Of a stretch of DNA of 32,000 nucleotides, positions 403-27,177 are shown piece after piece. The DNA is from Hallerella sp. (lineage in GTDB: Bacteria > Fibrobacterota > Fibrobacteria > Fibrobacterales > Fibrobacteraceae): positions 2,155 through 34,154 of the forward strand of contig JBNMGX010000004.1 of assembly GCA_050872465.1 (NCBI GenBank), read 5' to 3'. The number at the start of each line of letters is the position of its first letter. Position 1 is the first letter of the stretch. Below the pieces are notes generated by a model. It saw only the letters and a list, made by a program, of their open reading frames with translations. It was not told the origin of the DNA and did not search any database. Both the position numbers and the translations under genes were made by a program.

Positions 403-942
403 CTAGGCCAGCTGCTGGATTTCCTTTACCGAAAAACCGGAATACTTGGCGACCTTTTCTAGGGGCATTCCATCGGCAAGCATCGCCTTGGCGATTTGGA
501 GCTTTCCTTCCCGAAGCCCCTTGGCAACACCTTTTTTGACACCCTTTTCTATGCCTTCTTCAACGCCTTCCTTAATCCCTTCGGACTTCCACTCGGCCTT
601 ATGGGCATCCACGTATTCCTTTTCGAGAACCTCGTACAGGCTAGGTTCGCCATATACATCGCGATGAGTCACGAAATCCATAAATTCCTCCTTGTCTTCA
701 GGGCGTTTAACCGCTGTTAAATATAGCATCGTTTTTCGGATCAGGGTTGTTCTTTCTTTTTGTGGAATTTCAAAAAAAATCCTGTGAGCGTCTTCGCGCA
801 AATCTTTTAACCCATCTGGCTCGAAGGCGTATTTTTTGTTTTGCATGGCTGCCAGGCGGAGCAAGTCGGCACAGCGTTCGGGCTTGTAGAAGACGGACCG
901 GAAAAAACCGTCATGCGGATGGCAGTTCGTTTTTCTTTCCAT
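403..942 (-). CDS. Rpn (YhgA-like) recombination-promoting nuclease/transposase-family protein, short form apparently lacking most of the PD-(D/E)XK core
   Basis: The N-terminus HPHDGFFRSVFYKPERCADLLRLA resembles the HD..FK..F motif of Rpn/YhgA proteins. The C-terminus (EGIKEGVEEGIEKGVKKGVAKGLREGKLQIAKAMLADGMPLEKVAKYSGFSVKEIQQL) is the typical Rpn repeat tail plus helix. At 179 aa it is far shorter than the roughly 300 aa usual for the family. Confidence 0.55.
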   Translation of the reverse strand: MERKTNCHPHDGFFRSVFYKPERCADLLRLAAMQNKKYAFEPDGLKDLREDAHRIFFEIPQKERTTLIRKTMLYLTAVKRPEDKEEFMDFVTHRDVYGEPSLYEVLEKEYVDAHKAEWKSEGIKEGVEEGIEKGVKKGVAKGLREGKLQIAKAMLADGMPLEKVAKYSGFSVKEIQQLA

Positions 943-1026: not shown

Positions 1027-2544
1027 CTAGGAGACGGATTTCCGGAGTCTCGCCGGGAGAATCCTGAGTTCCTCGCGATACTTGGCAACCGTTCGACGCG
1101 CCACCTTCATCCCCTGCCGTTCAAGCGATTCGGATATCGCCTGGTCGGATAGCGGGGCCTTGCGGTCTTCGCCGGAAACAAGCTCCTTGATGGCGTCGAG
1201 AATCTTGGCGGATCCGATAGATGTCCCGTCGCCCTGGGCAACGCCCGAACTGAAAAACTGTTTAAGTTCATAGACGCCGTAAGGCGTATCGACATATTTG
1301 CCGTTCGTCGCCCGGTTGACGGTGCTCGGATCGCGGTGGATTTCGTCGGCGATGTCCTGGAGAACCATCGGTTTCAGGTTTTCCGGACCTTTGGCAAAGA
1401 AGTCGTGCTGCTTTTGAAGGATGGCGTTCATCACCAGTTCAATTGTACTGTGGCGGTTATCGACGCTCTTGATGAAAGAATTGGCCGCGTTGAGTTTTTC
1501 ACGGACATATTCCTTGTCTTTTTTGCTCGCGGTAGGACTTTGCAAAAGCTTGCGGTAAGTCTCGTTGATATGCAGATGCGGAATGTGGTCGCGGAACATG
1601 ACGACCTTGAACTCGCCGGGTTCCGTCTCGATAACTTCCATGTCGGGGACAATCGACTGGATGGGCGTATTGTTGATCTGCGCACCGGGATGCGGGGAAA
1701 GACGGGCAAGTTCATGTACGGCCTTCTGGACATCTTCCGTGGAGACGTTCAGAGCCTTGGCGATCGACGCATATCGCAAATCCCGGAGTTCGTCATAGTG
1801 ATTTTCAAGAATCTGAATGGCGAGCGGAGAAAAATCCGGAATCCGGTAAGCCTGGATCAGCAGACATTCACGAAGGTCCCGCGCCCCGATTCCCGGCGGC
1901 GTAAACGATTGGAGAACATGAAACGCTTCCTGGACAGGATACGAGGCTTCTTCGAGAGGCTTCTTTTCTTGCAGAACGTCTTCCACCTCGAGAATGTCGG
2001 GATTTTGTTCCGAGAGGCTTGTTTCCTGGGCGGCAAGGTTTTTGTCCGCAGGCGCGAGAAATCCGTCGTCCCCGACGCAATCGATGAGATATTCGACGAT
2101 TTTAACGATTCGAGGCGGTCGCTTCCAGTCGCGAAGCTGGTTTTTCAAAATATCCTGCATACTGAGGCCGCGCGTCGGCTCGGAGCGAAGTTCGTCATCC
2201 GGGTCTCGTCCACCAAGGTCCTTATAAGGAGCTTCCGCATTCCGAAACCCGTCTTCCATGTACTTTTCCCAATCGATCGAATTTTCCGCGCCGGGTTCCA
2301 TCAGGTCGTGGCTGTTGTCGTCTCCGTCGCGCCCGGAGCTTTCCTTTGCCGGAGCGTCGAGGGATTCCAGGCGGCTGTCGGGAGTCTCGTCCGCTTCGAG
2401 GAGAGGGTTTTCGGCAAGTTCTTCCGAAATAGCCGTTTCGAGTTCAAGCGAGTTCATTTGGAGCATCTTGACGGACTGCAACATCTGCGGCGAAAGGTTT
2501 TGTTCTAGCCGCACGCCTTGCTTGAGCTGTATTCCTAAATCCAT
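1027..2544 (-). CDS. rpoN: RNA polymerase sigma-54 factor
   Basis: 505 aa. It has a Gln/Leu-rich N-terminal region I (LSPQMLQSVKMLQMNSLEL), an acidic region II and a C-terminal RpoN box (ARRTVAKYREELRILPARLRK). It follows lptB, as in the conserved lptB-rpoN operon. Confidence 0.95.
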   Translation of the reverse strand: MDLGIQLKQGVRLEQNLSPQMLQSVKMLQMNSLELETAISEELAENPLLEADETPDSRLESLDAPAKESSGRDGDDNSHDLMEPGAENSIDWEKYMEDGFRNAEAPYKDLGGRDPDDELRSEPTRGLSMQDILKNQLRDWKRPPRIVKIVEYLIDCVGDDGFLAPADKNLAAQETSLSEQNPDILEVEDVLQEKKPLEEASYPVQEAFHVLQSFTPPGIGARDLRECLLIQAYRIPDFSPLAIQILENHYDELRDLRYASIAKALNVSTEDVQKAVHELARLSPHPGAQINNTPIQSIVPDMEVIETEPGEFKVVMFRDHIPHLHINETYRKLLQSPTASKKDKEYVREKLNAANSFIKSVDNRHSTIELVMNAILQKQHDFFAKGPENLKPMVLQDIADEIHRDPSTVNRATNGKYVDTPYGVYELKQFFSSGVAQGDGTSIGSAKILDAIKELVSGEDRKAPLSDQAISESLERQGMKVARRTVAKYREELRILPARLRKSVS

Positions 2545-9536: not shown

Positions 9537-11150
9537 CTATATTGTAGAATTCCAGGAATAAGCCCCATAGGATGATTGACACGAATAGGTCTTGCCGCCT
9601 ATCGAAATACTACTATCCGGGTTCTGAAACGAGCATTCTTCCCACCGAGAACCCGAACATAAAAGCTGGATAACATCCTTTCCGCATGCTTTTTGAAATT
9701 CTTCGCTCGTTATTTCTTCGCCGCCCAAGTATTTCATCATAATATCCTCGTCTAATTCAGCACACTCTTCAATTCCGGCGGTTGTTCGCGCAAGAAAAGC
9801 AATCTCTCCGGCATTGGCGGACGAACACTGCGTACCGGTAGGCGAATCATCTTGCACATTCTCGTTTACCTTCCATTTGCCGGCAGAACATACGAAGAGA
9901 TCGACAGCCTTGTCTGTCCATTCGGGCGTCGTCGGACAAGGCGTTCCCTCGACAGGAGCCGAAAGCGACCACCAGTTGTTTGCCTTGCAATACCAGTTTT
10001 TCTTGATTTCCCCCTCTTTGCCTTTTACGCAAACAGCCTGCAGCTCCCGTTCCGTTTCAAACGGAATGTCCGTCAGACTGAAACCGGGCGTACCGCAGGA
10101 CACATTCATAACGGCATCGGCAAGCTCCCTGTTTTCATAGCCAGCGAGGCGAATGTCAAAAACGACGCCAGTTTCGTAAAATCTTCCAGATATACTCGGT
10201 TTTTTCTTAAAGAACGCCAGATAAGGATTGTCCGCATCATGAATCCCGAGCAAAGTCGGCAGATTGTCGAAATCTTCGTCGGCTAGCGTGCCAACGGATT
10301 GAACAAGCTTATAGTACAACCACATAGAGGAATCCGCAGAGTTTACGTCCGCATCAATGCTTAACCGCAGAGCGTCCTTTGAATAGAGGTAGTACAATTC
10401 CGTCGTCGAAGATTCACTGAAGCACTGCGAAATCATCCCGCCATCGCATGGCATGGACAGGAGCCTATCCGGAGTATCCCGGATGATTTGGAGCACAGCT
10501 CGATTTCCTTTGGAATCCACCATTTGCAAATGAATATCCAGCTGAAAGTTTTCCTCGTCGCATTCAAAATCCAGTGTCACAAGGCTGTCTTCTATGATGG
10601 TACAGACAGGATCAGACATCGCTGTCGAATCTTTGCAGTAAACCGACGCAATCCCTTCTCGAGATGCAATCGGGCTTTCGCAGACACCTTTCTTGAACTG
10701 CTGTTTTTTTTCTTCGGCCCCCTCTCCAAGATACATTCCACCTTTGTAGGAGACCTTGTAATGGAGGATTCCGTCTTGCGCATAGATTTCATCCTTGTTT
10801 ATATGGTCGTCGCATGTAAAAATGTTTTCCCTTTGGGAAACAGAGGACGAAGAAACAGAGGACGAACTCGCAACATTTTCCGAAGAACTAGTTCCGTCTT
10901 TCCTGGCAGAGCTGCTCGATCGATTCGCTTGGGAAGTCGAGTCTTTTTCAATCCATTCGCCATTCTTGCAGACATACTCAATTCCGGATTCCTCGTCCAT
11001 TCTGGTTTCCGAATCTAAATCCGCAGTGCATTTCGGCATAGATTCCGAAAGCGGCGGTTTGCTCGACCCCGAAGAATCGTCCCCGCATGCTACGAACCCC
11101 GCTAGCGGGAATAAGGCGATACCGAACAGTTTCGAAACGTCAATTTTCAT
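9537..11150 (-). CDS. Ser-rich, Cys-rich secreted lipoprotein of unknown function
   Basis: 537 aa. The signal peptide has a lipobox (LFPLAGFVAC), followed by a Ser-rich linker (SSSSARKDGTSSSENVASSSSVSSSSVS). A short C-x-x-G-x-W-type module recurs (YVCKNGEWIEK, WYCKANNWWS, FVCSAGKWKV, LLCSGSRWEE). Confidence 0.7.
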   Translation of the reverse strand: MKIDVSKLFGIALFPLAGFVACGDDSSGSSKPPLSESMPKCTADLDSETRMDEESGIEYVCKNGEWIEKDSTSQANRSSSSARKDGTSSSENVASSSSVSSSSVSQRENIFTCDDHINKDEIYAQDGILHYKVSYKGGMYLGEGAEEKKQQFKKGVCESPIASREGIASVYCKDSTAMSDPVCTIIEDSLVTLDFECDEENFQLDIHLQMVDSKGNRAVLQIIRDTPDRLLSMPCDGGMISQCFSESSTTELYYLYSKDALRLSIDADVNSADSSMWLYYKLVQSVGTLADEDFDNLPTLLGIHDADNPYLAFFKKKPSISGRFYETGVVFDIRLAGYENRELADAVMNVSCGTPGFSLTDIPFETERELQAVCVKGKEGEIKKNWYCKANNWWSLSAPVEGTPCPTTPEWTDKAVDLFVCSAGKWKVNENVQDDSPTGTQCSSANAGEIAFLARTTAGIEECAELDEDIMMKYLGGEEITSEEFQKACGKDVIQLLCSGSRWEECSFQNPDSSISIGGKTYSCQSSYGAYSWNSTI

Positions 11151-11401
11151 AGAACCTCTTTTTTTTGTTGCATTTTATTACAAAATTACATTCAAATTTA
11201 ATTTTGCGGGCATTCATCGTCAAACAAATCCAATTTTAATCAAAAAAGCAAAAAAAACATCGAAAAACGAAAAGTTGTCGCCGACGATTCTTACAACTTC
11301 GCAAAAGCGTTCAACGGGAGCGGAGGATTTCGACATCGCCGATCAGCCTAGGGGAGTCGTAAAGCAGGCCGAGTGGAAACGGAATCGCTATCGGCGATAA
11401 T

Positions 11402-14400
11402 TCATTTTTTTACAAGTTCAATTTCCGGAAGTATAATTGGGCAAAGGTCCTCGCGTTCTTTATTGTGCCAGGCGACCACATAGCGGATTCGAACCTGTTT
11501 TACGGAATATCCCAAATCATTCAAATGGGAAATTTTTTCTCTTGCCGTTTTTGACAGTACTGCGACAGGATTTTTTGATCCGCTGTCGTCGTACAGTTTT
11601 CCTCGGAAATACTTCAATGCGTCTCCGCTGTGCAGTTTGAAGATTCGTTTTTTCAGGTCTGCGCCTTCGTCAATCGTTTCGCCATAAGAGTAATCAAGCC
11701 ACATGTCCCTGTGACCGAATTGGAAAATGATTTCGGCGGGTTCCGAATACTTCGCTTTTTCGACTATTGCGGGAGCGTACTTATCTAAGAAGGGGCAGCA
11801 ATGGAAAACATACAGTTGCTTTTTCGCGCGGGTAAAGCCTACATACAATACACGGCGGCCTTGATCGGCATTTGCTCTTTGATCCTTGATCAGCATATAG
11901 ACTCGATCAAATTCGCGCCCCTTTGCCTTGTGAATCGTGGAGACAACGACCTCGTTCTTTTCTCCGCGTTCAAAGTCGGAAATTTTCGATTCCATCAAAA
12001 ACAGCTTCAAGTCGTTTCGATAAAGTCGATCGTTGTGCTTTTGATACACCTTAAGCGCCTTTAAGCAGATTGGCAGCAACGAACTCTTTTGATAAGCGTC
12101 TTTAAACTTGTTTATGGACGCGCTCCACTCATCCGAGCTAATGACAGGCTCTTCGTTTTTGGAGATCCATTTTACAAAGCATCTGAACTCTGCTAGATCG
12201 TAGAGCGAAAATCCGTCGCTATCCTGAATCAGCTTCGCCTTGATGTTTTCGTGATTTAGGAGCGCCATCATTTTCAGGGCGTCGTCATTCGTCTGGGTTA
12301 AAACACTCACGGTCCCTTGAGGCGGATATTTTTTCAAGTGTTCAACGACGGGGTATTCCATATTCGGCGAATCGAACTTTCGGATTCTTACAGTTCCTTC
12401 CCCATCCGAAACAGCTCGAATCGGATTCACCTTCAAGCGATTAGGAATGTCCTGAACAAAAGAATTTGTAAAATCGACGACCTTTTTGATGCTGCGGTAA
12501 TTTTCGACAAGTTCATACTTTTTGGCCTTGTAAAGTTCAATAAAGCGATTCAAATCCACAGACTTTGAACCCGCCTTTTGATGGATACCTTCGAAAATGT
12601 TCTGGTCATCGTCGCCCACGGCAATGACGCGCATGTCTTCGTTCTCTTCGATCAAGGCTTGAACCAAGGCAAACTGGTGTTCATCCATATCCTGGGCTTC
12701 GTCAATCACCAGGACTTTCTTGGTTACCTTGCTATGCTCAATTTCGCCTTCCTTGATTTTTGCGACCGCCATTTCTACGGCGGATTTGGCCTTGTCCAGA
12801 TCGCCCATGGTGCCTAGTAAATCAAAGGCATAGGAATGGAAGGTCTTGGCAGTCAAAAAAGAGGCCGCGCGACCAATCAACTTATGGAGCTTTTCCTTGA
12901 AATCGATGGCTGCGCTGCGAGAGAACGTGAGCATTAGCAACTGTTCGTGCTTCACGTCTTCCAAGAGCATCAATGACGCCAACTTATGGACGAGAACGCG
13001 GGTCTTTCCGCTTCCGGGGCCTGCAGCCACCATGATGTACTGGCTGTTTTTATCTTCGATAATTTGCTTTTGACGTTCCGAAAGGGAATCCACAATTTCG
13101 TGATACTTTTCGGGAGTAATATTGTGGTTGATTTCGTCCATGCGGTTGCCCTTGAAATACTTGTTCAAGAACATCTTGTAATCCAGGGCGAAATAATCGC
13201 TTACAAAAGTCTGAGCCTGCTTGCTGTCACGCACCATCATGTTGGCGTATTCACCGACGATATGGATTTGCTGCATTTTCATCTGGTAGAAATGATTCAG
13301 CTTTTCATAGTCATCGACTTTATACTTGATCAGGTTGCTCTTTTCGATTCGATGAATTTCAAGCGCGTTGTAGAGAACCAAGAATCCGTCTTCCAGTTGC
13401 AAAGAATTGATCTTGGAAAGATATAGAAGAGACGTTTCAAGTTCCTTGTAAGATACCGGTTCGTTGGCAAATAAGGAAACCTGTTTTTCGTAAGCGGTCA
13501 GCAATTCTTTTTCGGAGAATTGAATCAGGGCTTCTTCACGAGAATTCGTCTTGGCGTCGGCATTTGCCTGGTACAGTTGGTCAATCACAAAATGGGCCAA
13601 TTGAACTCGGCGCTTAAAATTGCTCTCTAAGTTTTGGAGAGAAACCTTCAATTCAATTTTTGTACAGATGTCCGAACAGTAATTCTTTTCGATAAGGCCA
13701 TTGATCATCCAAAAGAACAGAATGGTCTTGAAGTCCTTTACGCTTGACTTCTTTATTCCCTTAGCTTCTGCTTGTTCATTCAATTCCTTGAGATTGAATA
13801 CGGTTTTTCCTTCTTTCAGTTTAGTAATCAAGAAGTTTTCAAGAGCCTCGAAACGTTTGAGGACCAGCTTTGACTTGTTTTCGCCATCGCCTTTTTTAAT
13901 GTAGGCGGTCAAATCCTTGGAATCGTCCAGAATATTTTCGGCGCGCAAAAGCTGAACCGTTTCTTGAACAACACGACATTCCAAGCCGAGAACATCGGCG
14001 ATGTAGTCGATGCGGGATTCCGCTTCATCGCCCTTGCCTTTTGAAACGATTCGTTCCGAAATCAACAGGCTAATAATTCGAATGGCGTTTTCCTTCTGAT
14101 TTTCGTCAAACATGTTTGATGCGGTAATCTTGCTACGAGCCTCGTCCATGTTTGAAACAAGAATGCCTGTGGCGTAAACCCGAGGGCAGTTCTGCTTGCG
14201 CTCAATGTAGCCCGCTTCTTCCAAAGCGAGAATGGCTGTTTTCACACGCGTTTCGATATCGCCATTTGGGTCGTCAAAACCCGCTTCTCTTGCGATTTCA
14301 AGAGGCGAACGCTTCAGCACGGTCCTGTTCTTTGTAAGGTTCTTGATGGCCTTCCAGACCTGTTGAATTTCGCTCATGCTGAGCTTCGTCTGGTTCAGCA

Positions 14401-16246
14401 ACAAGAAATGTTTGTCCAAATCACTTTCGTTAAAAAGGACGAAACACTCCGCCTGCAAGCTCTGGTCTCGCCCGGCGCGACCGGCCTCTTGAACATAGTT
14501 TTCAAGCGAATCCGAAATTTCGTAATGAACAACAAGCTGCACGTCCGACTTGTCAACGCCCATTCCAAATGCAGAAGTGGCGACGATAATCTGAACCTTG
14601 CCGCTGATGAACGCTTCCTGGTTTTCCACCTTTTCGCGGGCTTCCATTTTGCCGTTAAAAGGCAAAACCGCAAATCCGTCTTTGCCCAGTTTTTCTGCCA
14701 GCTCGTGCGTTTTCTTGGTTCTCGAAACATAGACGATAGTCGGGCAATTTTTCGCCTCAATCAACGAACGCAAGGTCTTGTACTTTTGATCATCGTCTTC
14801 TTGATAGATGACGTGATAGGTCAGATTTGCGCGGGTCGCCCTTGTGGCAAAAATCCTTAAATCAAGATTCAGCTTTTTCTTGAAGTAATCGCAAATGTCC
14901 TGCACCACTTTTTGCTTTGCCGTTGCCGTAAAGCAGGATACGGGAATCCTTCTTGTCCCAGACTTTTGCGCCTGGATATTCTTGATGAAATCTCCGATAT
15001 AGAGATAGTCCACACGAAAATCATGACCCCAGCTCGAAAAACAGTGGGCCTCGTCGATTACAAATCGAGCAATCTGCCTAGAGAGCAAAAGCTTTTCGAT
15101 AGTGCGGGAACGCAGAGACTCCGGCGAAATGTACAGCAACGAAGCCATGCCGGTCGCGACACGCTTAATGGACTCCGCGCGTTCAATGGGATCCAGCAAA
15201 CCGTTGATGGTTACCGCATCCACAATTCCCTTGGAACTCAGATTATCCACCTGGTCCTTCATCAGGGACTGCAAAGGCGAAATCACGACCGTTAAGCCCT
15301 TGTAATTTTCCCCTGCCATCAAAGCGGGTAGTTGGAAGGTAATGGACTTACCGCCACCTGTCGGGAAAATGGCCAATAGGGATTCGTTATTGACCGCCGC
15401 CGCAGCTGCACGCTCCTGCAGAGGTTCGCCATCGTAAGTTCTAAAGCTATCGTAGCCAAAAATTTCCTTCAGCTTTTTGCGGACATCGAGCTTGCCGTTG
15501 CAATAGGCGCATGTAGGCTCGTGACACGGATTGTTGCGCAAAAAGAAAAGGATGTTCTCGGTGAACGGATAGTTTCGCAGTACCCAGGCCGGTGTAATGG
15601 AACGCTTATCCTGAAGGTTGATTACGGACAACGCATAGGCCAGTTCAATCGGACGTTCTGTCGCGAACGATTCCATCACGGCATTTTCACAAATCAGACC
15701 GGCAAATCGACTTTGAATCTGTGTTACAAGGTTCTTGGTGTTAGACCTTGCCAAAAGAAGATTGTTGAAAAATCCCTTGCTTTCTTCTTTCAGACCGACA
15801 TAATCAAAGAATCCCTTAAATTCTTTTGAATCTTTCAACAGCTTGAAATAGATGTCCTTTAATTCGCCATCTAGGGCATTGAACGCATTTACTTCATCGT
15901 GGAACAATTCCCTGGACTTTTCCGCATCTAGCAAGGGGTTGTTCAAAGCGTCGCTCAGGATTTTTTCGTCTTTCAGCAACTTGTGGCTAGGCCGCATGGG
16001 GAACATCAGCGGAGAAAGATAGAGCGTGTCAATAACCTTCTTTTTATCCAGTTCCATGTGCTTTAGATACTGAAGATCGTGATTCAAAATGTTATGACCA
16101 CCGACGTATTCCGCACCTTTCACAAAATTCAGGAAATCACCCTGGCTCGGTGTATGAATCGTCCGATCCAAAGAATCGACGGCTCCGAGATCGGCAATTC
16201 TCCCACTGGATGTGGAAACTTCAATATCAAAAAAAACGATGTTCAC
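11402..16246 (-). CDS. giant fusion helicase: DnaQ-like exonuclease-like N-domain + RecQ-family (SF2) helicase + UvrD/PcrA-like (SF1) helicase
   Basis: 1614 aa. The N-terminus carries FFDIE, GHNILNHDL and LLDAEKSRELF (DEDD-exonuclease-like). The RecQ core has PTGGGKS (15344-15364), DEAH (VIDEAHCFSSWGHDFRVDY, 15044-15055) and YVQEAGRAGRD. The UvrD core has VAAGPGSGKT (13001-13030), VIDEAQDM (12686-12709), TIHKAKGREFD and GFTRAKKQLYV. Confidence 0.85.
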   Translation of the reverse strand: MNIVFFDIEVSTSSGRIADLGAVDSLDRTIHTPSQGDFLNFVKGAEYVGGHNILNHDLQYLKHMELDKKKVIDTLYLSPLMFPMRPSHKLLKDEKILSDALNNPLLDAEKSRELFHDEVNAFNALDGELKDIYFKLLKDSKEFKGFFDYVGLKEESKGFFNNLLLARSNTKNLVTQIQSRFAGLICENAVMESFATERPIELAYALSVINLQDKRSITPAWVLRNYPFTENILFFLRNNPCHEPTCAYCNGKLDVRKKLKEIFGYDSFRTYDGEPLQERAAAAAVNNESLLAIFPTGGGKSITFQLPALMAGENYKGLTVVISPLQSLMKDQVDNLSSKGIVDAVTINGLLDPIERAESIKRVATGMASLLYISPESLRSRTIEKLLLSRQIARFVIDEAHCFSSWGHDFRVDYLYIGDFIKNIQAQKSGTRRIPVSCFTATAKQKVVQDICDYFKKKLNLDLRIFATRATRANLTYHVIYQEDDDQKYKTLRSLIEAKNCPTIVYVSRTKKTHELAEKLGKDGFAVLPFNGKMEAREKVENQEAFISGKVQIIVATSAFGMGVDKSDVQLVVHYEISDSLENYVQEAGRAGRDQSLQAECFVLFNESDLDKHFLLLNQTKLSMSEIQQVWKAIKNLTKNRTVLKRSPLEIAREAGFDDPNGDIETRVKTAILALEEAGYIERKQNCPRVYATGILVSNMDEARSKITASNMFDENQKENAIRIISLLISERIVSKGKGDEAESRIDYIADVLGLECRVVQETVQLLRAENILDDSKDLTAYIKKGDGENKSKLVLKRFEALENFLITKLKEGKTVFNLKELNEQAEAKGIKKSSVKDFKTILFFWMINGLIEKNYCSDICTKIELKVSLQNLESNFKRRVQLAHFVIDQLYQANADAKTNSREEALIQFSEKELLTAYEKQVSLFANEPVSYKELETSLLYLSKINSLQLEDGFLVLYNALEIHRIEKSNLIKYKVDDYEKLNHFYQMKMQQIHIVGEYANMMVRDSKQAQTFVSDYFALDYKMFLNKYFKGNRMDEINHNITPEKYHEIVDSLSERQKQIIEDKNSQYIMVAAGPGSGKTRVLVHKLASLMLLEDVKHEQLLMLTFSRSAAIDFKEKLHKLIGRAASFLTAKTFHSYAFDLLGTMGDLDKAKSAVEMAVAKIKEGEIEHSKVTKKVLVIDEAQDMDEHQFALVQALIEENEDMRVIAVGDDDQNIFEGIHQKAGSKSVDLNRFIELYKAKKYELVENYRSIKKVVDFTNSFVQDIPNRLKVNPIRAVSDGEGTVRIRKFDSPNMEYPVVEHLKKYPPQGTVSVLTQTNDDALKMMALLNHENIKAKLIQDSDGFSLYDLAEFRCFVKWISKNEEPVISSDEWSASINKFKDAYQKSSLLPICLKALKVYQKHNDRLYRNDLKLFLMESKISDFERGEKNEVVVSTIHKAKGREFDRVYMLIKDQRANADQGRRVLYVGFTRAKKQLYVFHCCPFLDKYAPAIVEKAKYSEPAEIIFQFGHRDMWLDYSYGETIDEGADLKKRIFKLHSGDALKYFRGKLYDDSGSKNPVAVLSKTAREKISHLNDLGYSVKQVRIRYVVAWHNKEREDLCPIILPEIELVKK

Positions 16247-16409
16247 GATGGTAAAATAAATCTTTTTCGGTGCGAATTATGCAGGGAAATGCGGATAAAG
16301 TTTTTGTTGTACTATTCCTGATCCGAAATTCTGGCTTATATGACATTTGGGTACCTAGATTCTTTCTAACCCATTGTCATTCTTGACGTTAGAGTAGATT
16401 TTTCTTTTT

Positions 16410-17192
16410 ATGGGAAAAATCTGCTTTTTTTGTGGTAGAAACGACGTAATAAAGAAAGGGTTGAAGAACGGGAAACAACGCTGGTTTTGCAAAGCGTGCG
16501 GCAAGTTTTTTTCGTCCCGAAAGCGCGCGGACAAGAAAAGGATGATCGAACTCTATACCCAGGGAAACTATACAGTACGACAGCTTGCCTCCTTGTTCGG
16601 CTTTTCGGAAAGAACCGTATATCGCTCATTGCAAAGGTACTCAAACAACAGCTCGGCAAGACCTGTCCAGAAAGATATTGTCGCCATGATGGACGCTTCC
16701 TATTGGGGCTGGAATTTCGGCGCCGTCGCCACCAAGGATCACGTTTCGGGAGTTGTCCTCTGGCATAAATTTATCGACCGAAAAGAACGGACCGGCGACT
16801 ATGTTGAAGGAATCCTGGCTCTTGAGCGACAAGGTTTCACGATACGCGGCATCGTAAGCGACGGACTGAAAGGCTTGCGGGACAGGCTATCCGCCTATCG
16901 TTTCCAATACTGCCAGTTTCATCAAGTAATGACCGTAAAACATAAATTGACCAACCATCCGAAGTTGGAGGCGTCAATAGAGTTGCTGGACATTGCGAAG
17001 CTTCTATGCCATACAGACAAAGAATCTTTTGCGGGAATTTTGAACGACTGGCGTGCAAGATGGGAATCCTTTCTTAACGAAAGAACTACCGATGAAAAGG
17101 GAAGATCTTTCTACACCCACAAAAACCTGAGAAGTGCGTATCATAGCCTTAAACGGAACATGCATTCAACGGTTCATCTGTTATTGGGTTAA
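16410..17192 (+). CDS. transposase-like protein (N-terminal zinc ribbon + HTH + DDE-like core; IS1595/IS1-like, family uncertain), probably 3'-truncated
   Basis: CFFCG...WFCKACGKFF forms a zinc ribbon and TVRQLASLFGFSERTVYRSL an HTH. Candidate catalytic acidic residues are MMDASYWG and IVSDGLKG, followed by THKNLRSAYHSLKRNM. The ORF stops only 8 aa after that last motif. No terminal inverted repeats were found. Confidence 0.5.
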   Translation: MGKICFFCGRNDVIKKGLKNGKQRWFCKACGKFFSSRKRADKKRMIELYTQGNYTVRQLASLFGFSERTVYRSLQRYSNNSSARPVQKDIVAMMDASYWGWNFGAVATKDHVSGVVLWHKFIDRKERTGDYVEGILALERQGFTIRGIVSDGLKGLRDRLSAYRFQYCQFHQVMTVKHKLTNHPKLEASIELLDIAKLLCHTDKESFAGILNDWRARWESFLNERTTDEKGRSFYTHKNLRSAYHSLKRNMHSTVHLLLG

Positions 17193-17255
17193 TCCCCAAA
17201 GAGAGTTTACGAAGATAGCTTTCAGCATGTTCCAAAATTTCTAATTCGGTCGCCA

Positions 17256-18296
17256 TTATTTCCCTCTATGTTCCGCTTCGCTTTCGATTTCTCGCAGTTC
17301 GGCCATATCCGCTTCATCGGCTTCAATCGCGTCCTGCATTTTGCGGCGTTCGGCAAAAGCATCGTAAATTTCGGACACGTGAGCTTCCATCTGCTTATTG
17401 GAGATATGTCCCTTATCTCGCAAGACACCCTTGTTTTGGAAGTTCAGCAGGGCATCGACATTGTTTCTCCAAAAGTCCAGAGTCAGGTCCTTACGTTCCT
17501 TAACTCGCAACTCTGCAGAGTCCAAAAAGAGAACCGTAAGACGATTCAGCGAATCAATCTCGTCGTGCGAAAGGTAATTCTTGGCAATGAAAATATCTTG
17601 CTTGCGAACCACCGTACCATGCCATGCCGTTAAGCCCATATTCGGTTTTTGGGCATCTGCTCGATCGCATATAATTTCTGCAGCAGTTCTGTTGGCTACG
17701 GCATAAAGCAGTTTGTTCTGTGTTTCGGCAAAGAACATTTGGGTTGCCTTGTCTGACGCATCGTAATCGCTACTTAGGGCAAGCAAATCTCGAACCTTCT
17801 GATAGAAACGCTTTTCAGAGGCTCTGATATCACGAATGCGCTCAAGAAGTTCATCGAAATAGTCTGGACGTCCATCGGGATTCTTAAGACGATCATCATC
17901 AATATCAAACCCCTTAATCATGAACTGTTTAAGGTGTTGATTCGCCCAAATGCGGAATTGGACGCCCCGTTTGCTCCGGACTCTAAAACCGATGGCCAAA
18001 ATCATGTCCAAAGAGTAAAAAAGGACCTTATAATTCTTACCGTCTTCGGCAGTTGTAAAGTAATACTTTACAACTGAATTTTCATCTAACTCCTTGTCCT
18101 GCAAGACATTGGCGATATGCGCACCTACATTTTGCTTTGAGGTGTCAAAAAGTTCTGCAATCTGATTTTGATTCATCCATACATTGCCGTCTTTGGCCAT
18201 TAAGGCGACTTTCGCCTTGCCATCAAGGGTGTTATAGATGATAATGCTCTGCTCAACTTTTCCCGCAGAGCCTTTATTTTCGTCTTTTTTCGCCAT
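17256..18296 (-). CDS. RhuM-family (virulence protein RhuM-like) protein
   Basis: 346 aa. IIIYNTLDGKAKVALMAKDGNVWMNQNQIAELFDTSKQNVGAHIANV...LAIGFRVRSKRGVQFRIWANQHLKQFMIKGFDIDDDRLKNPDG...DYFDELLERIRDIRASEKRFYQKV is a very typical RhuM-family sequence. Confidence 0.85.
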   Translation of the reverse strand: MAKKDENKGSAGKVEQSIIIYNTLDGKAKVALMAKDGNVWMNQNQIAELFDTSKQNVGAHIANVLQDKELDENSVVKYYFTTAEDGKNYKVLFYSLDMILAIGFRVRSKRGVQFRIWANQHLKQFMIKGFDIDDDRLKNPDGRPDYFDELLERIRDIRASEKRFYQKVRDLLALSSDYDASDKATQMFFAETQNKLLYAVANRTAAEIICDRADAQKPNMGLTAWHGTVVRKQDIFIAKNYLSHDEIDSLNRLTVLFLDSAELRVKERKDLTLDFWRNNVDALLNFQNKGVLRDKGHISNKQMEAHVSEIYDAFAERRKMQDAIEADEADMAELREIESEAEHRGK

Positions 18297-18380: not shown

Positions 18381-19824
18381 TCAATATTCCCTCAATTCCT
18401 GGATAAGTTTTATTTCAATCCCAGCCATTTTCTCTGAGAAATCCTTAAATGACGCCGTGTTTTGCGGGATGGGAATGCCAATTGCTGAAATTTGGCCACC
18501 CTGTCCTAATGCTTTCTTGGGGCGTGATTGAAGAACCGTTTCATACTGATTGTTTTTGTTCTCGATTGGAAATAGCAATATTGCCTTTTTCGCGGGAATG
18601 CAGTGTATGTAGGCGAGCATTTGGAAAAGATCGTTTCTTCCCATGCAAACTTTAAAACCTGTATCGTTATCAAAAGTGTCGGTTTCGTCATTTTCCGATA
18701 CATTTGCAAATCTTTTATATTTTGCATCAAGAACGATACTTTGATCAATCGCCTGATTGCGACGGTAAAAATCCGGATAATATGTTCCACCGTTTTCAAA
18801 GAGTCTGATGCCATTTTGTTTGAGGCGGTTGTTGGAATGGACAAAGCCCAATTTGGCCTTGTCGATTACCGTTGCCAGGTATTCTTCCCAAAGACTGGCA
18901 CCGTCAAAAAGAATTCCTCCGATGAGTTTGGAATCTTCGCCATAGCTTAGTTTTTTGTGAAGTAGAATCGAGAGGCAAAGAAGTCGCAATGGTTCGTAGG
19001 CGGTGTAGTACGGATGCGTTATCCGGCGCAGATTTTTGGAGATAATCTGATTCCGGGCGTTTTTATTATAGGATTCCGTCACCTGTTCAATCGCTTGAAC
19101 ATTGTCGCGAGTTTTGCCGGCGATACCACCACCCAGAACCGCTCTGCCGCAAGGCAGGGATGTGTTCGATGGTATGGCGCACAAGTTGCGTCACGTTGTT
19201 GTCGGTGGTGTATTCTCGCGTGTGGTACGCGACCTTGCCATTAAAGGGAATGTTGTAACGGATGTGTCGGTTGATATCTATCGGGCCGCGGACATTGGCG
19301 TCGTTGTATTCACGCGTCACGTAAGCGCGATAGATGCCCTGCTTTATGGACTGATTCAAATAGTTCGGGAAAAGATAAAAGAGAAAATCGTAAAACTGAT
19401 CTTCGCCAGAATTGGTTTCGGGAACGTAGGCTATATTGCAGACCTTTTGCAGCATATAGTGCAAAAAGAAATTCTTGTCGGCATCGTCGAAACGAGACGA
19501 AATGCACATGTGCACATTTTTGCCCAGGCCCAGAAAGCCCATCACGTTCCCTGTCCGGAACTTGGGATTTTTCGTTTCTTTATCTACAAGCGAATAGATG
19601 AAATCCTTGTCGGCAAGGTCCTTTTCGCCCGCGGTAAACGGGAACACGAGAAACTTGCGAACGTCGAATTCCTTTTTCGAAAGATCGCTTAACGAGAGAC
19701 CGTCAAAACTCAGCAAAGCGTCTTTCTCTTCGCCTTCGTAGGCGTGAGACTTTTCATTTTTTTGAACAGCCTCGTCCCATTTTGTGAGATTGTTGACCTG
19801 ATTATCTTTTAAAGAGATGAGCAT
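18381..19824 (-). pseudogene. mcrC: McrC-like 5-methylcytosine restriction subunit, split by a frameshift
   Basis: Two overlapping minus-strand ORFs (19087..19824 and 18381..19184) together make one McrC-sized protein. The total span of 1444 nt is not a multiple of 3. The N-part is McrC-like (LISLKDNQ...FYDFLFYLFPNYLNQSIKQGIYRAY). The C-part carries the PD-(D/E)XK nuclease motif (YYPDFY...IVLDAKYK). It starts 2 nt after the mcrB stop. Confidence 0.7.
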
Positions 19825-19826
19825 TG

Positions 19827-21734
19827 TTATTTCTGTTCACTGGCTTTAAGATTGTACGCATCCTCAAGCTTTTTCAGCAAAATGCCACTTGCATCGTCAA
19901 TTCCGCGAAGGTATTCGCGAACAACGCCCTTGATGTGGTAATCCCACAGTTTTTCAAACGCTTCGTCATCATTACTTCCTTTGAAGTAATTGGCGAATTT
20001 AAGGAAGTATGCCCCGCCAATCTGGTAATCCTTGCCCAGATGGAATTCTTCATCAAGGATAGCTTTGTTCAGATTATCCATTCGATCTATGATTGCCTGG
20101 AGATGCGCGGACACGTCAATGGTTTCATCTGATCCATCGGCATTTTTCTCGCCAGTCTTCCAAGACTTTCCATCTCCAAACATATTTTTTCGACTCTGTT
20201 CGGCAGTTATTTCTTCAAAGGCGAATCTACGACGCATAGCAAAGTCCATACTTTCGACACTTCGGTCGATGTCGTTCATTGTACCGATGATATAGACGTT
20301 TTCCGGAACGAAGAAGCCATTTGCAAAAACATCCTCTTCATCAATTAGATTTTGATACTGGGTATTTATTCGACCTTTCTCTCCGCGATAACCAGGATCG
20401 ATCGCGTAAAACAGTTCTCCAAATATTTTGGATATTTCTCCACGATTGATTTCATCGATGATAAAGACAAATAGCTTGGCTTTTGAAGATAATGCACTTT
20501 TGCAGAATTTTTTGAATGCGCCATCTTTGTATTCAAAACCGTCTGCTTTTCCATCTTGCCCTTTTGCGGGTCTCAATCCTTCTACAAAATCAGTATAGTC
20601 ATACGATTGGTGGAACTGAACCATTTTCCATTCGGCGCCCATTGACTCTGCAATCTTTTTAGCAAGATATGTTTTCCCAGTTCCTGGAGCTCCGTGGAGA
20701 ATGATGTTGTGATTGTTCTTCAGAAAATCAACGTAATTCATGTAATCTACTTCCATAGCATTATCCTCCTTGTCTTGCGGGCCATCCATCTCCAGCTTAT
20801 CTTTTGCGAATTTGATTAAGTCATGTAACTTGTCACTGCATTCTTGCAATGTCTTGCGATACTTGCCATACATATTTCCATCGAAATCAATTTCTGGTGA
20901 AACGCGGACCCAATCGACATCACAGCTAAACCAGTGTGGACGAGTTGAATCTTTCGCCTCCATATTAGATGTGGCACAACCAACGCCATAGACCTTTATA
21001 AAAGGAAGGTCGTGTTTAGATCCCTTTGTAGAACATGTGGCCGCGATGATGATATCGCCGATTTTAACCTGCTTAATATACTTTTCGGTATCGCATTCGC
21101 CACCTTCCCAATATCCGTCTTTTACGAAGGTGTCGATCATGTTTTGACGTGGTTCACCGAAACTTGTCCCTGCAATCCAAATCCGCTGCATTTCTGCAGC
21201 GTAACTGAAAGCCGCATCAGAGAACTCGTAGAAATTGTGGTAGGACTTATCGCCACTATTAAGGAGTTCTTTAACTTTTTTAGCAGCATTCTCATACACC
21301 GCGTAGGAAACTGAATTGTCACGCAACTTTAAGCCGCTTTCCTTATTAAGAAAAATTCGAGAAAGACTGTCCATTGGCGGATATTCATTGGGCTTCATCC
21401 AGAAAAATGCATAAGTCAAATTCCACTTGACGCCATTCTTTTTCTGAGCCTCATCAAAATGCTCGGCAATCTTGGCGGAATCGTTCTGCATAAAGGCTTC
21501 AAACAGGTTCCACAGTAATGGAATTGTCTCCAACTTTTCATTTTCGTAGTAGAAACAGGATTTCTGTGCATTGCTGATGGGGAGCCCTTCAAAGTCGTCC
21601 GGGACAGGCGCTACAATTTCAAATTTCGCTTTAAGAGCCTTAATCATTTCCTGGCGTTTCTCAACACCAGAGGAACGGTTAAATATTGCAAAAACAGTAA
21701 ACGGATCGATATCGCGAAGAATTCCGTCGGACAC
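19827..21734 (-). CDS. mcrB: McrB-family AAA+ GTPase restriction subunit (largest intact ORF; the true N-terminus at 21875 is cut off by an in-frame TGA)
   Basis: Walker A ILHGAPGTGKTY (about 20670-20700), FIIDEINRGEISKIFGELFYAIDPGYRG and IIGTMNDIDRSVESMDFAMRRRFAF are McrB/GTPase AAA+ signatures. The tool start is a GTG. The same frame continues upstream as MAKFTWIPFYEEFAKKLLDYKD...SLDAE-TGA-IGFLTAK from an ATG at 21875 with a GAGGG RBS. Confidence 0.85.
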   Translation of the reverse strand: MSDGILRDIDPFTVFAIFNRSSGVEKRQEMIKALKAKFEIVAPVPDDFEGLPISNAQKSCFYYENEKLETIPLLWNLFEAFMQNDSAKIAEHFDEAQKKNGVKWNLTYAFFWMKPNEYPPMDSLSRIFLNKESGLKLRDNSVSYAVYENAAKKVKELLNSGDKSYHNFYEFSDAAFSYAAEMQRIWIAGTSFGEPRQNMIDTFVKDGYWEGGECDTEKYIKQVKIGDIIIAATCSTKGSKHDLPFIKVYGVGCATSNMEAKDSTRPHWFSCDVDWVRVSPEIDFDGNMYGKYRKTLQECSDKLHDLIKFAKDKLEMDGPQDKEDNAMEVDYMNYVDFLKNNHNIILHGAPGTGKTYLAKKIAESMGAEWKMVQFHQSYDYTDFVEGLRPAKGQDGKADGFEYKDGAFKKFCKSALSSKAKLFVFIIDEINRGEISKIFGELFYAIDPGYRGEKGRINTQYQNLIDEEDVFANGFFVPENVYIIGTMNDIDRSVESMDFAMRRRFAFEEITAEQSRKNMFGDGKSWKTGEKNADGSDETIDVSAHLQAIIDRMDNLNKAILDEEFHLGKDYQIGGAYFLKFANYFKGSNDDEAFEKLWDYHIKGVVREYLRGIDDASGILLKKLEDAYNLKASEQK

Positions 21735-24470: not shown

Positions 24471-25115
24471 TCACCTCCTCCTAACAAGACTCTTAGTCCT
24501 CACTGTATCAATAATTTGAATATTCATTTTCTTCAATTCATCAATTTTCAAAATTAACGAATCTATTTTTTCTAAATTAATTTTCATAGAATCAAATTCT
24601 TTCAACTTTACTTCTAAAGGTATACCATCTTTTTCATTGGTTACTTTTATCTTTTGCGTATCATCTCCATTTATACAAAATGATACTACTGACAAGATTA
24701 AAGTACCAACAAGCATGCATCCATAAAAAGGTCCAATACTAGGAGATTTCAAAACTTCTTTGAAAGATTCTTTGTCTTTATAGTCTTTTATAGATGTGCT
24801 ATACAAAGAAACAACTTTTGGCGGTTGATTATCATTCCCTATTTTAACAACATCTTTATACAAACGCCGAAAGCGGCGCTCCAGTTGTAAATAGAACACA
24901 TCTAAGTATCCAAAAAGAATAATAACTAATATCGTAATAGTACATAACCAAGGAATATTCACTGTAAAAGATATTCCAACAACTCCGGAAACCAAAGCAA
25001 TACACCATTCTTTCATTTGCTTTGAATTTTCACTCATTCTGGTTATGATAGCTTCAACAATATCAATATGTTGTCTTTTTTCTTCTTTTTCATCAGGTCT
25101 TGTTGTGTCACTCAT
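24471..25115 (-). CDS. 3-TM membrane protein with C-terminal coiled-coil-like tail, unknown function (candidate effector)
   Basis: 214 aa. Hydrophobic segments are WCIALVSGVVGISFTV, IPWLCTITILVIILFGYLDVFYL and IGPFYGCMLVGTLILSVVSFCI. A conserved-looking YLQLERRFRRLYKDV lies after TM2. The tail is heptad-like (KINLEKIDSLILKIDELKKMNIQII). It is co-oriented and tightly packed with the TIR genes. Confidence 0.6.
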   Translation of the reverse strand: MSDTTRPDEKEEKRQHIDIVEAIITRMSENSKQMKEWCIALVSGVVGISFTVNIPWLCTITILVIILFGYLDVFYLQLERRFRRLYKDVVKIGNDNQPPKVVSLYSTSIKDYKDKESFKEVLKSPSIGPFYGCMLVGTLILSVVSFCINGDDTQKIKVTNEKDGIPLEVKLKEFDSMKINLEKIDSLILKIDELKKMNIQIIDTVRTKSLVRRR

Positions 25116-25154
25116 TATCGACTCCTTTTTTTTGACGCTACAATACGCCTTTTA

Positions 25155-25757
25155 TCAACGTAAATACGGATTGCATCCTTTAAGCCATTCTTCAAAAATT
25201 ATATAGTGTCTTTCGTCATTATTCACCCACAGAGCATTTCGGCCTTTATCTGTTTTAGTTTCAGAAATATAAGGATATATCCCTAAATATTCTTGTCCCC
25301 GATAAACATCACTTTCATATACCTCTCTTGTTAAAGGGCATACAGCAACTCTATCTTTTAATCCATCCATTAATCCTAATTCCCAAGGCATCCACTTTGA
25401 TTGTGGAGCATTCTCTGATGTTACATAAAAAAGACATTTACAATTTCTCATTCGAAATTTTATAGTCTTCGCCGTTTCCTTTGTCACACGAAAACGATTC
25501 AAGTTTTGGTCTTCTATCCAGTCAACATATATTTCGTAATGATATTGTCTTTTCAAATATTTTACCAATCCTGCAACAGCCACTCGATCCTTATAACTAT
25601 GAGACAGAAAAATGTCATATTTTTTCTTTTCATCATACCGAGAGAAACATTTCATTTCCGATTCTAATAATACAGCCTCATCAATAGCGTATTTTGATGC
25701 AACAACGCGATTTTCTCGAGCAATAGACTCAAATCGATCAATATTAAATAAAGCCAT
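25155..25757 (-). CDS. TIR-domain protein
   Basis: 200 aa with YDIFLSHSYKDRVAVAGLVKYLK (beta-A/alpha-A), YEIYVDW (beta-B), CLFYVTSENAPQSKWMPWELG (beta-C plus the catalytic-Glu helix W-x-x-E). Confidence 0.8.
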   Translation of the reverse strand: MALFNIDRFESIARENRVVASKYAIDEAVLLESEMKCFSRYDEKKKYDIFLSHSYKDRVAVAGLVKYLKRQYHYEIYVDWIEDQNLNRFRVTKETAKTIKFRMRNCKCLFYVTSENAPQSKWMPWELGLMDGLKDRVAVCPLTREVYESDVYRGQEYLGIYPYISETKTDKGRNALWVNNDERHYIIFEEWLKGCNPYLR

Positions 25758-25760
25758 TCT

Positions 25761-26255
25761 TTAACCTCTTGCCTTAATTGCTTTTTCAACCCATTCTTCT
25801 AAATGTTCTGCAATGTCATTGTATGCATCGTTAGGATTTGGGTTATAACATGGTACCACAGAAGATAATGGATTACCATTTTCAAAGAATATTTTATTAA
25901 AGGGGTTATCACCCATATTAGAGTACCCCGAAAAACCTCGCCGACAAAACAAAGGATCTTTTATACGATGGATATATATTCCAAAAACACCCATTCCCTT
26001 ATTCCATGCTCGCCGAATTTCGTAGTCAACCCAAGGTCTTTCTGAGGTATATTCCCCCACAAGAACTATCAAACACGAGCGATACAGCATATTAGCATCA
26101 ATCCAACGACGAATGGCCTCGTCTCCGCCTCGTTTTACCATTTCCCATTCATTATCGGATACAGATTGATTTCCTTCTACGGCACCGATATTTCGCACTT
26201 GTGCTGCACGACGAGAGTCTTTTTCGTAGTGAAAACTATAAAAAACCTGACGCAT
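25761..26255 (-). CDS. TIR-like domain protein (DUF1863 / ThsB-like)
   Basis: 164 aa. The pattern VFYSFHYEKDSRRAAQVRN...CLIVLVGEYTSERPWVDYEIRRAWNKGMGVFGIYIH is characteristic of MTH538/DUF1863 TIR-like proteins, the class used by many Thoeris ThsB proteins. Confidence 0.75.
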   Translation of the reverse strand: MRQVFYSFHYEKDSRRAAQVRNIGAVEGNQSVSDNEWEMVKRGGDEAIRRWIDANMLYRSCLIVLVGEYTSERPWVDYEIRRAWNKGMGVFGIYIHRIKDPLFCRRGFSGYSNMGDNPFNKIFFENGNPLSSVVPCYNPNPNDAYNDIAEHLEEWVEKAIKARG

Positions 26256-26256
26256 T

Positions 26257-27177
26257 TTATTCCTCCTTCTTTTGACATGTTTTATATAGCCAATTTAAGG
26301 ATTCTTCCCATTTTTCTAATTTTGGATATTGCTGATTACGATTATATAAAGGTTTTAAAGCTGGAGCATAGCATCTATTTGAACAACATGATTGCCACTT
26401 TTTCAAATCACCTATGTTTAGATGAAATAGATTGTCTAAATTTACTGGATATGACACTTTAAAAGGTTCTTGATTCACGGATGCATTCACTTGACTTTCG
26501 AAAAGAGATTTACGAGGAAGTGATTTTCGAACTTTATCATTCACTCTAATTGTATCTACCGTAGCCAATTCATGAAAAATCCACGGAGAAAATGTTGTAT
26601 CAGCAGAGGCACTTAATGTTATTGATTCATCTGATTTTAGAAAAAAGAAACATTCTGTAGAATCAATCATACGTGTTAGTGCATTGCACAACAGCATGTG
26701 GACATGTGCAGTGCTATAATTTCTGTCAGACGCACTATAAGTAGTCTTTAAAAATTTTCGTTTGTCATCCTTATCAATATGTTCTCCCGTCTGGGGATCA
26801 ATTCTGCAAAAATCGAAGTCAACTTCTTTTTGGAGATCACTGATACACCCCCATAAATCAGAGTCAATAAAGGAATTTATTTCAAAATTTGATTTCAACC
26901 AATGGGCGAATTTTCTAGCTTTATCAACATTTTGACTTGAATGAGATAAAAATACATGGCATTTTACATCAGATGGAAAGAATAGCTTTCTGATTGAGTC
27001 GCCATCTAAAATGTTAATAAATTTACCATCTTCATCTTCTCTTTCAATACAGCCATCCAATATTAAATCTTTTAGCAAGTCTTTTAGGTTATTATTTTCG
27101 TCATAAAGAGATTCAGATGATTCTTTTTCTATTAGCGAATCAATATCGTTTAAGTCAATTGCGTATGCTCTAAACAT
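26257..27177 (-). CDS. TIR-domain protein with about 70-aa N-terminal extension, an internal insertion and a C-terminal extension
   Basis: 306 aa with HVFLSHSSQNVDKARKFAHWLKSNFEINSFIDSD (beta-A/alpha-A/beta-B), ECFFFLKSDES...FSPWIFHELA (beta-C plus W-x-x-E helix). About 60 aa are inserted between beta-B and beta-C, and a roughly 100-aa C-terminal region is unassigned. Confidence 0.65.
   Translation of the reverse strand: MFRAYAIDLNDIDSLIEKESSESLYDENNNLKDLLKDLILDGCIEREDEDGKFINILDGDSIRKLFFPSDVKCHVFLSHSSQNVDKARKFAHWLKSNFEINSFIDSDLWGCISDLQKEVDFDFCRIDPQTGEHIDKDDKRKFLKTTYSASDRNYSTAHVHMLLCNALTRMIDSTECFFFLKSDESITLSASADTTFSPWIFHELATVDTIRVNDKVRKSLPRKSLFESQVNASVNQEPFKVSYPVNLDNLFHLNIGDLKKWQSCCSNRCYAPALKPLYNRNQQYPKLEKWEESLNWLYKTCQKKEE

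Follow-up and report, generated by a model that had tools for sequence, protein, structure and literature searches.

We describe a single giant open reading frame (ORF) from Hallerella sp. (Fibrobacterota) and confirm that its product is a single genuine polypeptide with three modules: a DEDD-like exonuclease domain, a RecQ-type superfamily 2 (SF2) motor and a UvrD-type superfamily 1A (SF1A) motor. The ORF lies on the reverse strand at 11402–16246 of the 32,000-nucleotide stretch of DNA that was analysed, which we call the window (contig JBNMGX010000004.1, positions 2,155 to 34,154), and encodes 1614 amino acids (aa) followed by a stop, with GTG as its start codon. It belongs to a family that is real, large and apparently undescribed, and the gene is horizontally mobile. 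We consider this stand-alone mobile helicase-exonuclease to be a candidate single-gene immunity factor against invading DNA, whether phage or plasmid, a reading that we hold to be evenly balanced between right and wrong.

Three modules in one polypeptide

The reading frame can be followed from end to end. The GTG start is also used by the ortholog at L001, a comparison locus that is the same chromosomal site at 88–95% DNA identity, and homolog N-termini share an equivalent M-x-x-I-x-F-x-D-x-E start. Pfam places the first motor with DEAD (aa 275–450) and Helicase_C (aa 487–594) and the second with UvrD-helicase/AAA_19 (aa 1056–1220) and UvrD_C (aa 1396–1481), all above curated cut-offs, and assigns no family to aa 1–255, ~640–1050 or 1484–1614. 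A first-pass annotation of this DNA, made by a model from the letters alone, had proposed a 1614-aa single-ORF fusion; the ORF exists, both motors are placed by Pfam, the DEDD fold emerges from a structural model (below), and every motif string that had been quoted occurs exactly once in the translation (Table 1). As the architecture is kept end to end in hundreds of homologs, it is far beyond chance.

The first motor belongs to the RecQ family, scoring 273 bits on the NCBIfam recQ_fam model TIGR00614 against a cut-off of 219.8. It carries motif 0 (FGYDSFR), Walker A (TGGGKS), the arginine finger (QEAGRAGRD) and, directly after DEAH, the RecQ-specific aromatic-rich loop DEAHCFSSWGHDFR, and the PDB sequence matches of aa ~254–645 are RECQ5, E. 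coli RecQ, BLM, RECQ1 and WRN (E 1e-37 to 1e-55). The housekeeping RecQ equivalog TIGR01389 is not reached (315 bits against a cut-off of 640), and no RecQ_Zn_bind, RQC or HRDC match appears at E<0.1 in a Pfam scan of the window protein. These three domains are also outside the top families in a Pfam scan of 124 fragments that comprise tails, linkers and N-termini of family members, and a profile of aa 600–730 finds no RecQ chain in the PDB. The second motor matches UvrD, PcrA and Rep by sequence in the PDB, scores 87 bits on PF00580 and 74 bits on PF13361, and contains motifs I (GPGSGKT), Ia, II (DEAQD), III (GDDDQNI), IV (NYRS), V and VI; on the UvrD, PcrA, Rep and HelD equivalog models its best scores are 94–117 bits, far below the cut-offs of 543–1168. 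Residues nearly invariant in 110 diverse members include K300, DEAH, R590 and R593 in the RecQ motor and K1081, D1182/E1183/Q1185, R1251 and R1473 in the UvrD motor and, to judge from these sequence features, both motors look active.

The N-terminal domain has, according to its structural model, a genuine fold of the DEDD exonucleases. The AlphaFold2 (AF2) model of aa 1–256 is confident (mean predicted local distance difference test, pLDDT, 90.7), and its top Foldseek matches in the PDB, although weak (E 6e-4 to 0.1), are without exception DEDD exonuclease domains of the RNase H-like kind, among them those of family-B polymerases, Pol II, phi29 polymerase, oligoribonuclease (Orn), RNase AS, NrnC, EXD2 and S. 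aureus DinG (8zef, 9ii8), the last among the best. Weak matches to the Pfam family DNA_pol_B_exo1 occur in 8 of the 124 homolog fragments. Among the exonuclease models of Pfam and NCBIfam none recognises the window protein itself, and a PDB sequence-profile search with the domain returned nothing significant.

Conservation in the same 110 members defines the layout of the active site. Four acidic residues, D7, E9, D57 and D107, are invariant, and so are H51, N52, D73, H88, K92 and P104. The ExoII motif reads N52-x3-(H/F/Y)56-D57, with H, F or Y at position 56 family-wide; this is the ordinary N-x3-(F/Y)-D form, into which N52-x3-H56-D57 fits, and the extra residue once suspected here disappears. 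ExoIII reads (N/D)103-x3-D107, which is DEDDy-type spacing with the Tyr replaced, position 103 being N in 61 and D in 40 of the 110; the preceding N102 stands at the DEDDh His position and is N in 94. The earlier description of the domain as DnaQ-like was therefore right in that the domain is DEDD-like and wrong in deriving the Asn from a DEDDh His, since the layout is that of DEDDy with its Tyr replaced. As for the suggested alteration of catalysis, the four invariant metal-binding carboxylates, together with a ratio of nonsynonymous to synonymous substitution rates (dN/dS) of 0.067 against the L001 ortholog, show a domain that is constrained and not decaying, while exonuclease activity is predicted only, because the Tyr/His helper is lacking. 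Just before the RecQ core, C186, C241, C246 and C249, conserved in ~90% of the 110 members, form a four-Cys cluster and a putative Zn site.

The region between the motors had been pictured as about 400 aa of helical linker. It does separate them (aa 636–1050), and it is not just helical: the commonest weak matches among the 124 fragments are winged-helix families (HTH_Crp_2 in 22, HTH_36 in 15, TrmB in 14 and MarR_2 in 11), matches that were not traced to individual fragments and whose placement in the linker is our reading of the sequence. On this reading the linker probably contains winged-helix-like units in tandem. Ahead of the UvrD core, a segment (QQIHIVGEYA ... DYF..Y..F..KYF) is strongly conserved. 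Linker profile searches found no match in the PDB, and an RQC or HRDC domain in the linker was rejected, none being found by Pfam, PDB profiles or the fragment scans. The 131-aa tail is modelled with high confidence (pLDDT 93.1) and, as the first-pass annotation had it, is unassigned: Pfam, PDB and BFVD match nothing, the best structural E values being 0.02 and 0.05 in the latter two, no PDB sequence matches, and the family alignment shows no conserved catalytic-type residues. The same results lend no support to a PD-(D/E)XK, Vsr or Tudor domain or a modified-base reader in the tail.

Every segment of the protein is under purifying selection (dN/dS 0.04–0.14 against L001). The L001 ortholog aligns without gaps at 92% protein identity with an overall dN/dS of 0.063, and the values for the RecQ core, linker, UvrD core and tail are 0.038, 0.062, 0.053 and 0.135, respectively.

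Family distribution and genomic context

Full-length homologs of 1590–1760 aa fall into at least 109 clusters at 50% identity. A protein search returned full-length relatives of 1590–1670 aa at 52–93% identity, and among the 50%-identity representatives 109 of the 150 matches listed are at least 1500 aa long, aligned without a break from residue ~2 to 1200 and down to 33% identity. A scan of species-representative genomes adds at least 80 full-length loci in Fibrobacter, many Bacteroidota, Clostridia, Lentisphaerae, Proteobacteria and one Patescibacteria bin; the family is also found in Cyanobacteria and on complete plasmids, and identity across phyla is ~50–58%. Copies at ≥80% coverage are present in 22 plasmid records, with complete-plasmid carriers that include Bacteroides, Aliarcobacter, Rhizobium, Paracoccus, Cereibacter and Nostoc. 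An assembly chimera is ruled out, since the architecture recurs on complete plasmids and across hundreds of independent assemblies. The only database label of family members is 'RecQ family ATP-dependent DNA helicase', and our search of the literature found no description of the exonuclease-RecQ-UvrD architecture.

Two of the plasmid copies depart from a single uninterrupted reading frame. The homolog on Nostoc punctiforme pNPUN02 (L095) is annotated as three coding sequences that lie in a single frame with two in-frame stop codons, which points to pseudogenisation by nonsense mutation or to read-through, and a second Nostoc plasmid copy is disrupted by an IS1634 element.

The gene moves without a fixed companion. 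When up to six genes per side were clustered in 85 loci, no conserved neighbour was found, in keeping with the earlier statement that the gene has no partner; the close neighbours that share its strand, about 15 upstream and 14 downstream, bear no relation to one another. Relatives 77–93% identical to the window protein occupy six unrelated contexts. The sole recurrent neighbour family is a small orphan gene of 190–320 aa without a recognised domain, represented by 7 clusters only and seen in ~5 of 80 independent loci, upstream of the helicase in four (with a 4-bp overlap of the helicase start in L003) and downstream in one (L016). The gene might encode an accessory or a regulator that is optional; its rarity rules it out as a general partner or antitoxin. 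One of these loci, an 8.4-kb contig labelled Oscillospiraceae (L008), carries the small upstream gene together with a helicase 94% identical to that of the window, whose host is Fibrobacter-like, and suggests a binning error or a very recent transfer.

A rival reading is a RecQ-like toxin of the PsyrT/RqlH type, a genotoxic helicase that a small antitoxin encoded next to it restrains. The RecQ core (aa 254–639) is matched at 4e-80 by the PsyrT model of PADLOC, and in L001, L003, L008, L016 and L026 the small gene adjoins the helicase or overlaps it. We nevertheless regard such a toxin as highly improbable: besides the scarcity of the small gene, the PsyrT match spans only positions 8–377 of the 689 in the model, and in the window the small gene has been destroyed while the helicase is intact and constrained.

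Family members often have defence genes around them. Such genes lie within 8 kb in ~8 of 13 independent contexts annotated with Pfam, which is a qualitative count. In the window they are RhuM/PDC-S05, McrBC, AbiE, PIN, TIR/PDC-M50 and a type IIG restriction-modification (RM) enzyme; other contexts hold GmrSD with PIN7; RhuM, methyltransferases, DndB and McrB/LlaJI; a methyltransferase with an HNH protein; MNT/HEPN with SNF2-DUF4391; and BREX, AAA_13 and AAA_15. PADLOC applied to 150 neighbours of 40 more loci returned type I RM, SoFic, IetA, DpdE, SIR2-Ago and PDC candidates, each family at most twice.

Relation to known systems and candidate function

The first-pass annotation recognised no named defence system in this architecture, and we concur: PADLOC gives matches at the level of single modules, and the defining partner genes are absent. 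DpdF (2e-95), like PsyrT, matches the segment of the RecQ core given above, and GajB models match the UvrD-type module in part. PsyrTA/RqlHI and DpdF share with the window protein a defence-associated RecQ-like core, to which the matches are limited, and differ from it in having neither an exonuclease nor a UvrD module. The DpdF model NF041063 reaches 206 bits against a cut-off of 550, with no dpd genes in the window, and a PsyrTA/RqlHI assignment lacks a conserved neighbour in the 85 loci. In the case of Gabija, the scores of the UvrD-type module on GajB models are as good as those on UvrD/PcrA models; however, GajB works with the ATPase-TOPRIM nuclease GajA, whereas the nuclease here is a fused DEDD domain, and no GajA-like gene is found in the window or as a conserved neighbour elsewhere.

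By design, the nearest analogues are WRN, firmicute DinG, RecBCD/AddAB and Hna. WRN likewise fuses an N-terminal DEDD-type 3'-5' exonuclease to a RecQ core, and the two RecQ cores align at E ~1e-38; WRN differs in having RQC and HRDC domains and a DEDDy site with its Tyr, where the window protein has no detectable RQC or HRDC and Asn/Asp for Tyr, and it has no second SF1 motor. The likeness implies no orthology. The firmicute DinG ('ExoDinG') of S. aureus and B. subtilis also joins an N-terminal DEDD exonuclease to a helicase and has 3'-5' exonuclease activity on single-stranded DNA (PMC3270479, PMC12525004), but its motor is an XPD-like 5'-3' SF2 helicase and not RecQ, it has no UvrD motor, and it is a chromosomal repair gene. 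RecBCD and AddAB, with roles in repair and in the destruction of foreign linear DNA, bring two helicase-type modules and a nuclease to one DNA; RecBCD is a multi-subunit enzyme with two SF1 motors of opposite polarity and a PD-(D/E)XK nuclease, in contrast to a single chain with SF2 and SF1A motors, both expected to run 3'-5', and a DEDD nuclease. Hna is a large protein of one chain, with helicase motifs and an exonuclease activity of 3'-5' polarity on single-stranded DNA, that acts against phage by abortive infection (bioRxiv 10.1101/2025.11.12.688083). It resembles the window protein in its one-protein helicase-nuclease design and is set apart by a DinG-like SF2 helicase as its one motor and a C-terminal PD-(D/E)XK nuclease, with no sequence relationship.

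Motors of the RecQ type and those of the UvrD/Rep/PcrA type travel 3'→5' along single-stranded DNA, and DEDD nucleases trim 3' ends. As an immunity factor, the enzyme would load where single-stranded DNA meets duplex, for instance at a 3' tail, a gap, a fork, a D-loop or a rolling-circle intermediate. One strand would be taken by each motor and, the strands being antiparallel, two motors of the same polarity would either draw apart or close in on a branched structure; the 3' end set free would then pass to the exonuclease, and the replication or recombination intermediates of the invader would be dismantled and degraded. The linker would be DNA-binding, and the tail or the linker may act as a sensor or autoinhibitor. 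It is possible, though rather doubtful, that the protein is the founding member of an undescribed single-protein immune class, in which two same-polarity motors of different superfamilies grip both strands of a branched replication intermediate, a tethered non-canonical DEDD exonuclease destroys the nascent 3' end, and the orphan C-terminal domain recognises DNA or proteins of the invader.

If it is a defence system, the family would add to the known forms of bacterial immunity a widespread one that consists of a single gene and is easy to test. An SF2 and an SF1A motor joined covalently and equipped with their own exonuclease would represent a new plan for branched-DNA processing and a compact bacterial counterpart for comparison with WRN and RecBCD, and both the DEDD site with Asn/Asp for Tyr/His and the confidently folded, unmatched C-terminal domain pose testable biochemical questions.

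Several observations weigh against an immune role. The usual fifth catalytic residue of the nuclease, Tyr or His, is replaced by Asn/Asp. The association with defence genes is qualitative and has no background control, and ~5 of the 13 annotated contexts contain no defence gene and have housekeeping or recombinase flanks. Several copies adjoin genes of DNA metabolism, namely recO, recR, dnaN, ruvCA and a housekeeping-type RecQ, and some lie on large plasmids beside par/rep genes. Full-length copies are present on 13 of 2.9 million IMG/VR contigs; searching the flanks of these contigs against phage genomes with BLAST was uninformative as to whether they are true phages. Finally, the two-strand mechanism in its detail is something that we infer, and it is much less probable than the immune role itself.

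The copies near recO, recR, dnaN, ruvCA and the housekeeping RecQ leave a repair role open. On this reading the protein would be an accessory genome-maintenance enzyme and not an immune protein, a bacterial WRN-like factor at work on forks that have stalled or on recombination intermediates, either of the host chromosome or of large plasmids. The exonuclease and RecQ layout is that of WRN, a bifunctional exonuclease/helicase; in L063 the gene immediately upstream, on the strand of the family member itself, is a 680-aa housekeeping-type RecQ; some copies are on megaplasmids, one of them beside parAB/rep, and others are single insertions between housekeeping genes. A maintenance enzyme is harder to reconcile with the sporadic distribution, with contexts that differ even among relatives 77–93% identical, with the frequent embedding among restriction, Abi and BREX genes, with a G+C content below that of core genes, and with the absence of RQC and HRDC, two domains employed by housekeeping RecQ and by WRN. 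We judge this role unlikely, if well worth keeping in view.

Less probable again is that the gene serves as cargo of plasmids, mobilisable islands or prophage-like elements, helping the element to replicate, establish itself or resist host defences. The plasmid records and IMG/VR contigs counted above would fit, as would the copy in L003, which adjoins a Mob_Pre relaxase and an integrase, and that in L138, which adjoins resolvase/recombinase genes. Most of the 85 loci, however, have no adjacent element genes, 50,697 curated phage genomes contain no full-length copy, and the plasmid carriers are mostly typed as non-mobilisable. Since defence systems are commonly cargo of such elements, this possibility is compatible with the candidate immune role.

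The island around the gene

In the window, core genes (rpoN, lptB, Lpt-like genes, a glycosyltransferase, PCMD, Vut_1 and SDR) run up to ~9411, and the core continues from 31191, where an SBF transporter is encoded. The RpoN protein is nearest to proteins from Fibrobacter and Fibrobacteraceae (81% and 71%), which makes the host a Fibrobacter-like bacterium and not one of the Bacteroidota. Between the core flanks lie a 537-aa orphan ORF, the helicase, an insertion sequence (IS) remnant, RhuM/PDC-S05, McrC, McrB, AbiEii/AbiEi, PIN7/NYN, PDC-M50A with TIR proteins, and the type IIG RM enzyme. The G+C fraction is 0.519 in the core flank and 0.435 in the island, and that of the helicase gene (0.456, against 0.543 for rpoN) agrees with the earlier remark that the gene lies below the core. 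The gene does not quite open the accessory island, as had been thought, because a 2-kb indel that is absent from L001 and contains the 537-aa ORF intervenes between the helicase and the core. This ORF has its own sigma-70-like promoter match at 11223–11195. It is ruled out as a partner, being absent from L001 and having no homolog beside other family members.

On its upstream side, the helicase gene has lost its native surroundings. An 895-bp segment with a truncated transposase, an IS256-type remnant, replaces 1.2 kb of L001 upstream sequence up to 21 bp before the start codon, including the small upstream gene, which is intact in L001 (320 aa) and of which only the first codons are left in the window (Table 1). 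An ORF here that might have passed for a divergent helix-turn-helix regulator is this truncated IS256-family transposase. No sigma-70-type promoter match is left upstream of the helicase, in a scan that may not suit the organism.

Table 1 Features of the helicase-exonuclease gene, its neighbours and loci of family members. Positions are nucleotides of the window unless marked aa (residues of the window protein) or preceded by another locus.
Feature	Position	Strand	Basis
DEDD (RNase H-like) 3'-5' exonuclease-type domain, aa 1–120	15887..16246	-	motif conservation, AF2, Foldseek
Helical domain with four-Cys cluster, aa 121–255	15482..15886	-	DSSP of model, conservation
RecQ-type SF2 helicase core, aa 256–635	14342..15481	-	Pfam, NCBIfam, PDB sequence matches
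Family-specific linker, aa 636–1050	13097..14341	-	conservation, weak winged helix-turn-helix Pfam matches
UvrD/Rep/PcrA-type SF1A helicase core, aa 1051–1483	11798..13096	-	Pfam, PDB sequence matches, motifs
C-terminal alpha/beta domain, no known fold family matched, aa 1484–1614	11405..11797	-	AF2 model, alignment
FFDIE; HNILNHD; NNPLLDAEKS	aa 5–9; 51–57; 102–111		exonuclease-domain motifs
PTGGGKS; DEAH; GRAGRD	aa 295–301; 398–401; 589–594		RecQ-motor motifs
GPGSGKT; DEAQ; TIHKAKGREFD; FTRAKKQLYV	aa 1076–1082; 1182–1185; 1437–1447; 1471–1480		UvrD-motor motifs
537-aa ORF	9537–11150	-	no Pfam, NCBIfam or PADLOC match
IS256-family (Zn-binding variant) transposase remnant	16268..17162, ORF 16410–17192	+	NF048019 259 bits, model positions 2–249/304
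First 31 codons of small upstream gene	17164..17256	-	tblastn 97% over 31 aa
McrC, split	18381–19824	-	Pfam McrBC
McrB	19827–21734
PDC-M50A-like and three TIR proteins	24471–27177	-
Type IIG RM enzyme	27195–30926	-
Small orphan gene family, 190–320 aa	L001 6670–7632; L003 7417–8004; L008 3292–4254; L016 5516–6178; L026 232–804
Housekeeping-type RecQ	L063 9020–11059
Nostoc punctiforme pNPUN02 homolog	L095 8812–13830

The remainder of the island holds three further points of note. McrC is divided between two overlapping ORFs in different frames, which cover Pfam McrBC positions 2–145 and 145–318; this two-frame split of the match indicates a frameshift, either a pseudogene or a sequencing error, and the adjoining McrB is intact. 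Behind the PDC-M50A-like protein come three distinct ThsB-like TIR proteins, one with an additional match to PDC-M50B, in the stretch with the lowest G+C of the window (0.32–0.36); as the TIR proteins come with no detected ThsA-like effector, the set is possibly a candidate system related to Thoeris or of the PDC-M50 kind. The type IIG RM enzyme is 1243 aa long and carries DUF7149 and DUF7814 at its N-terminus.

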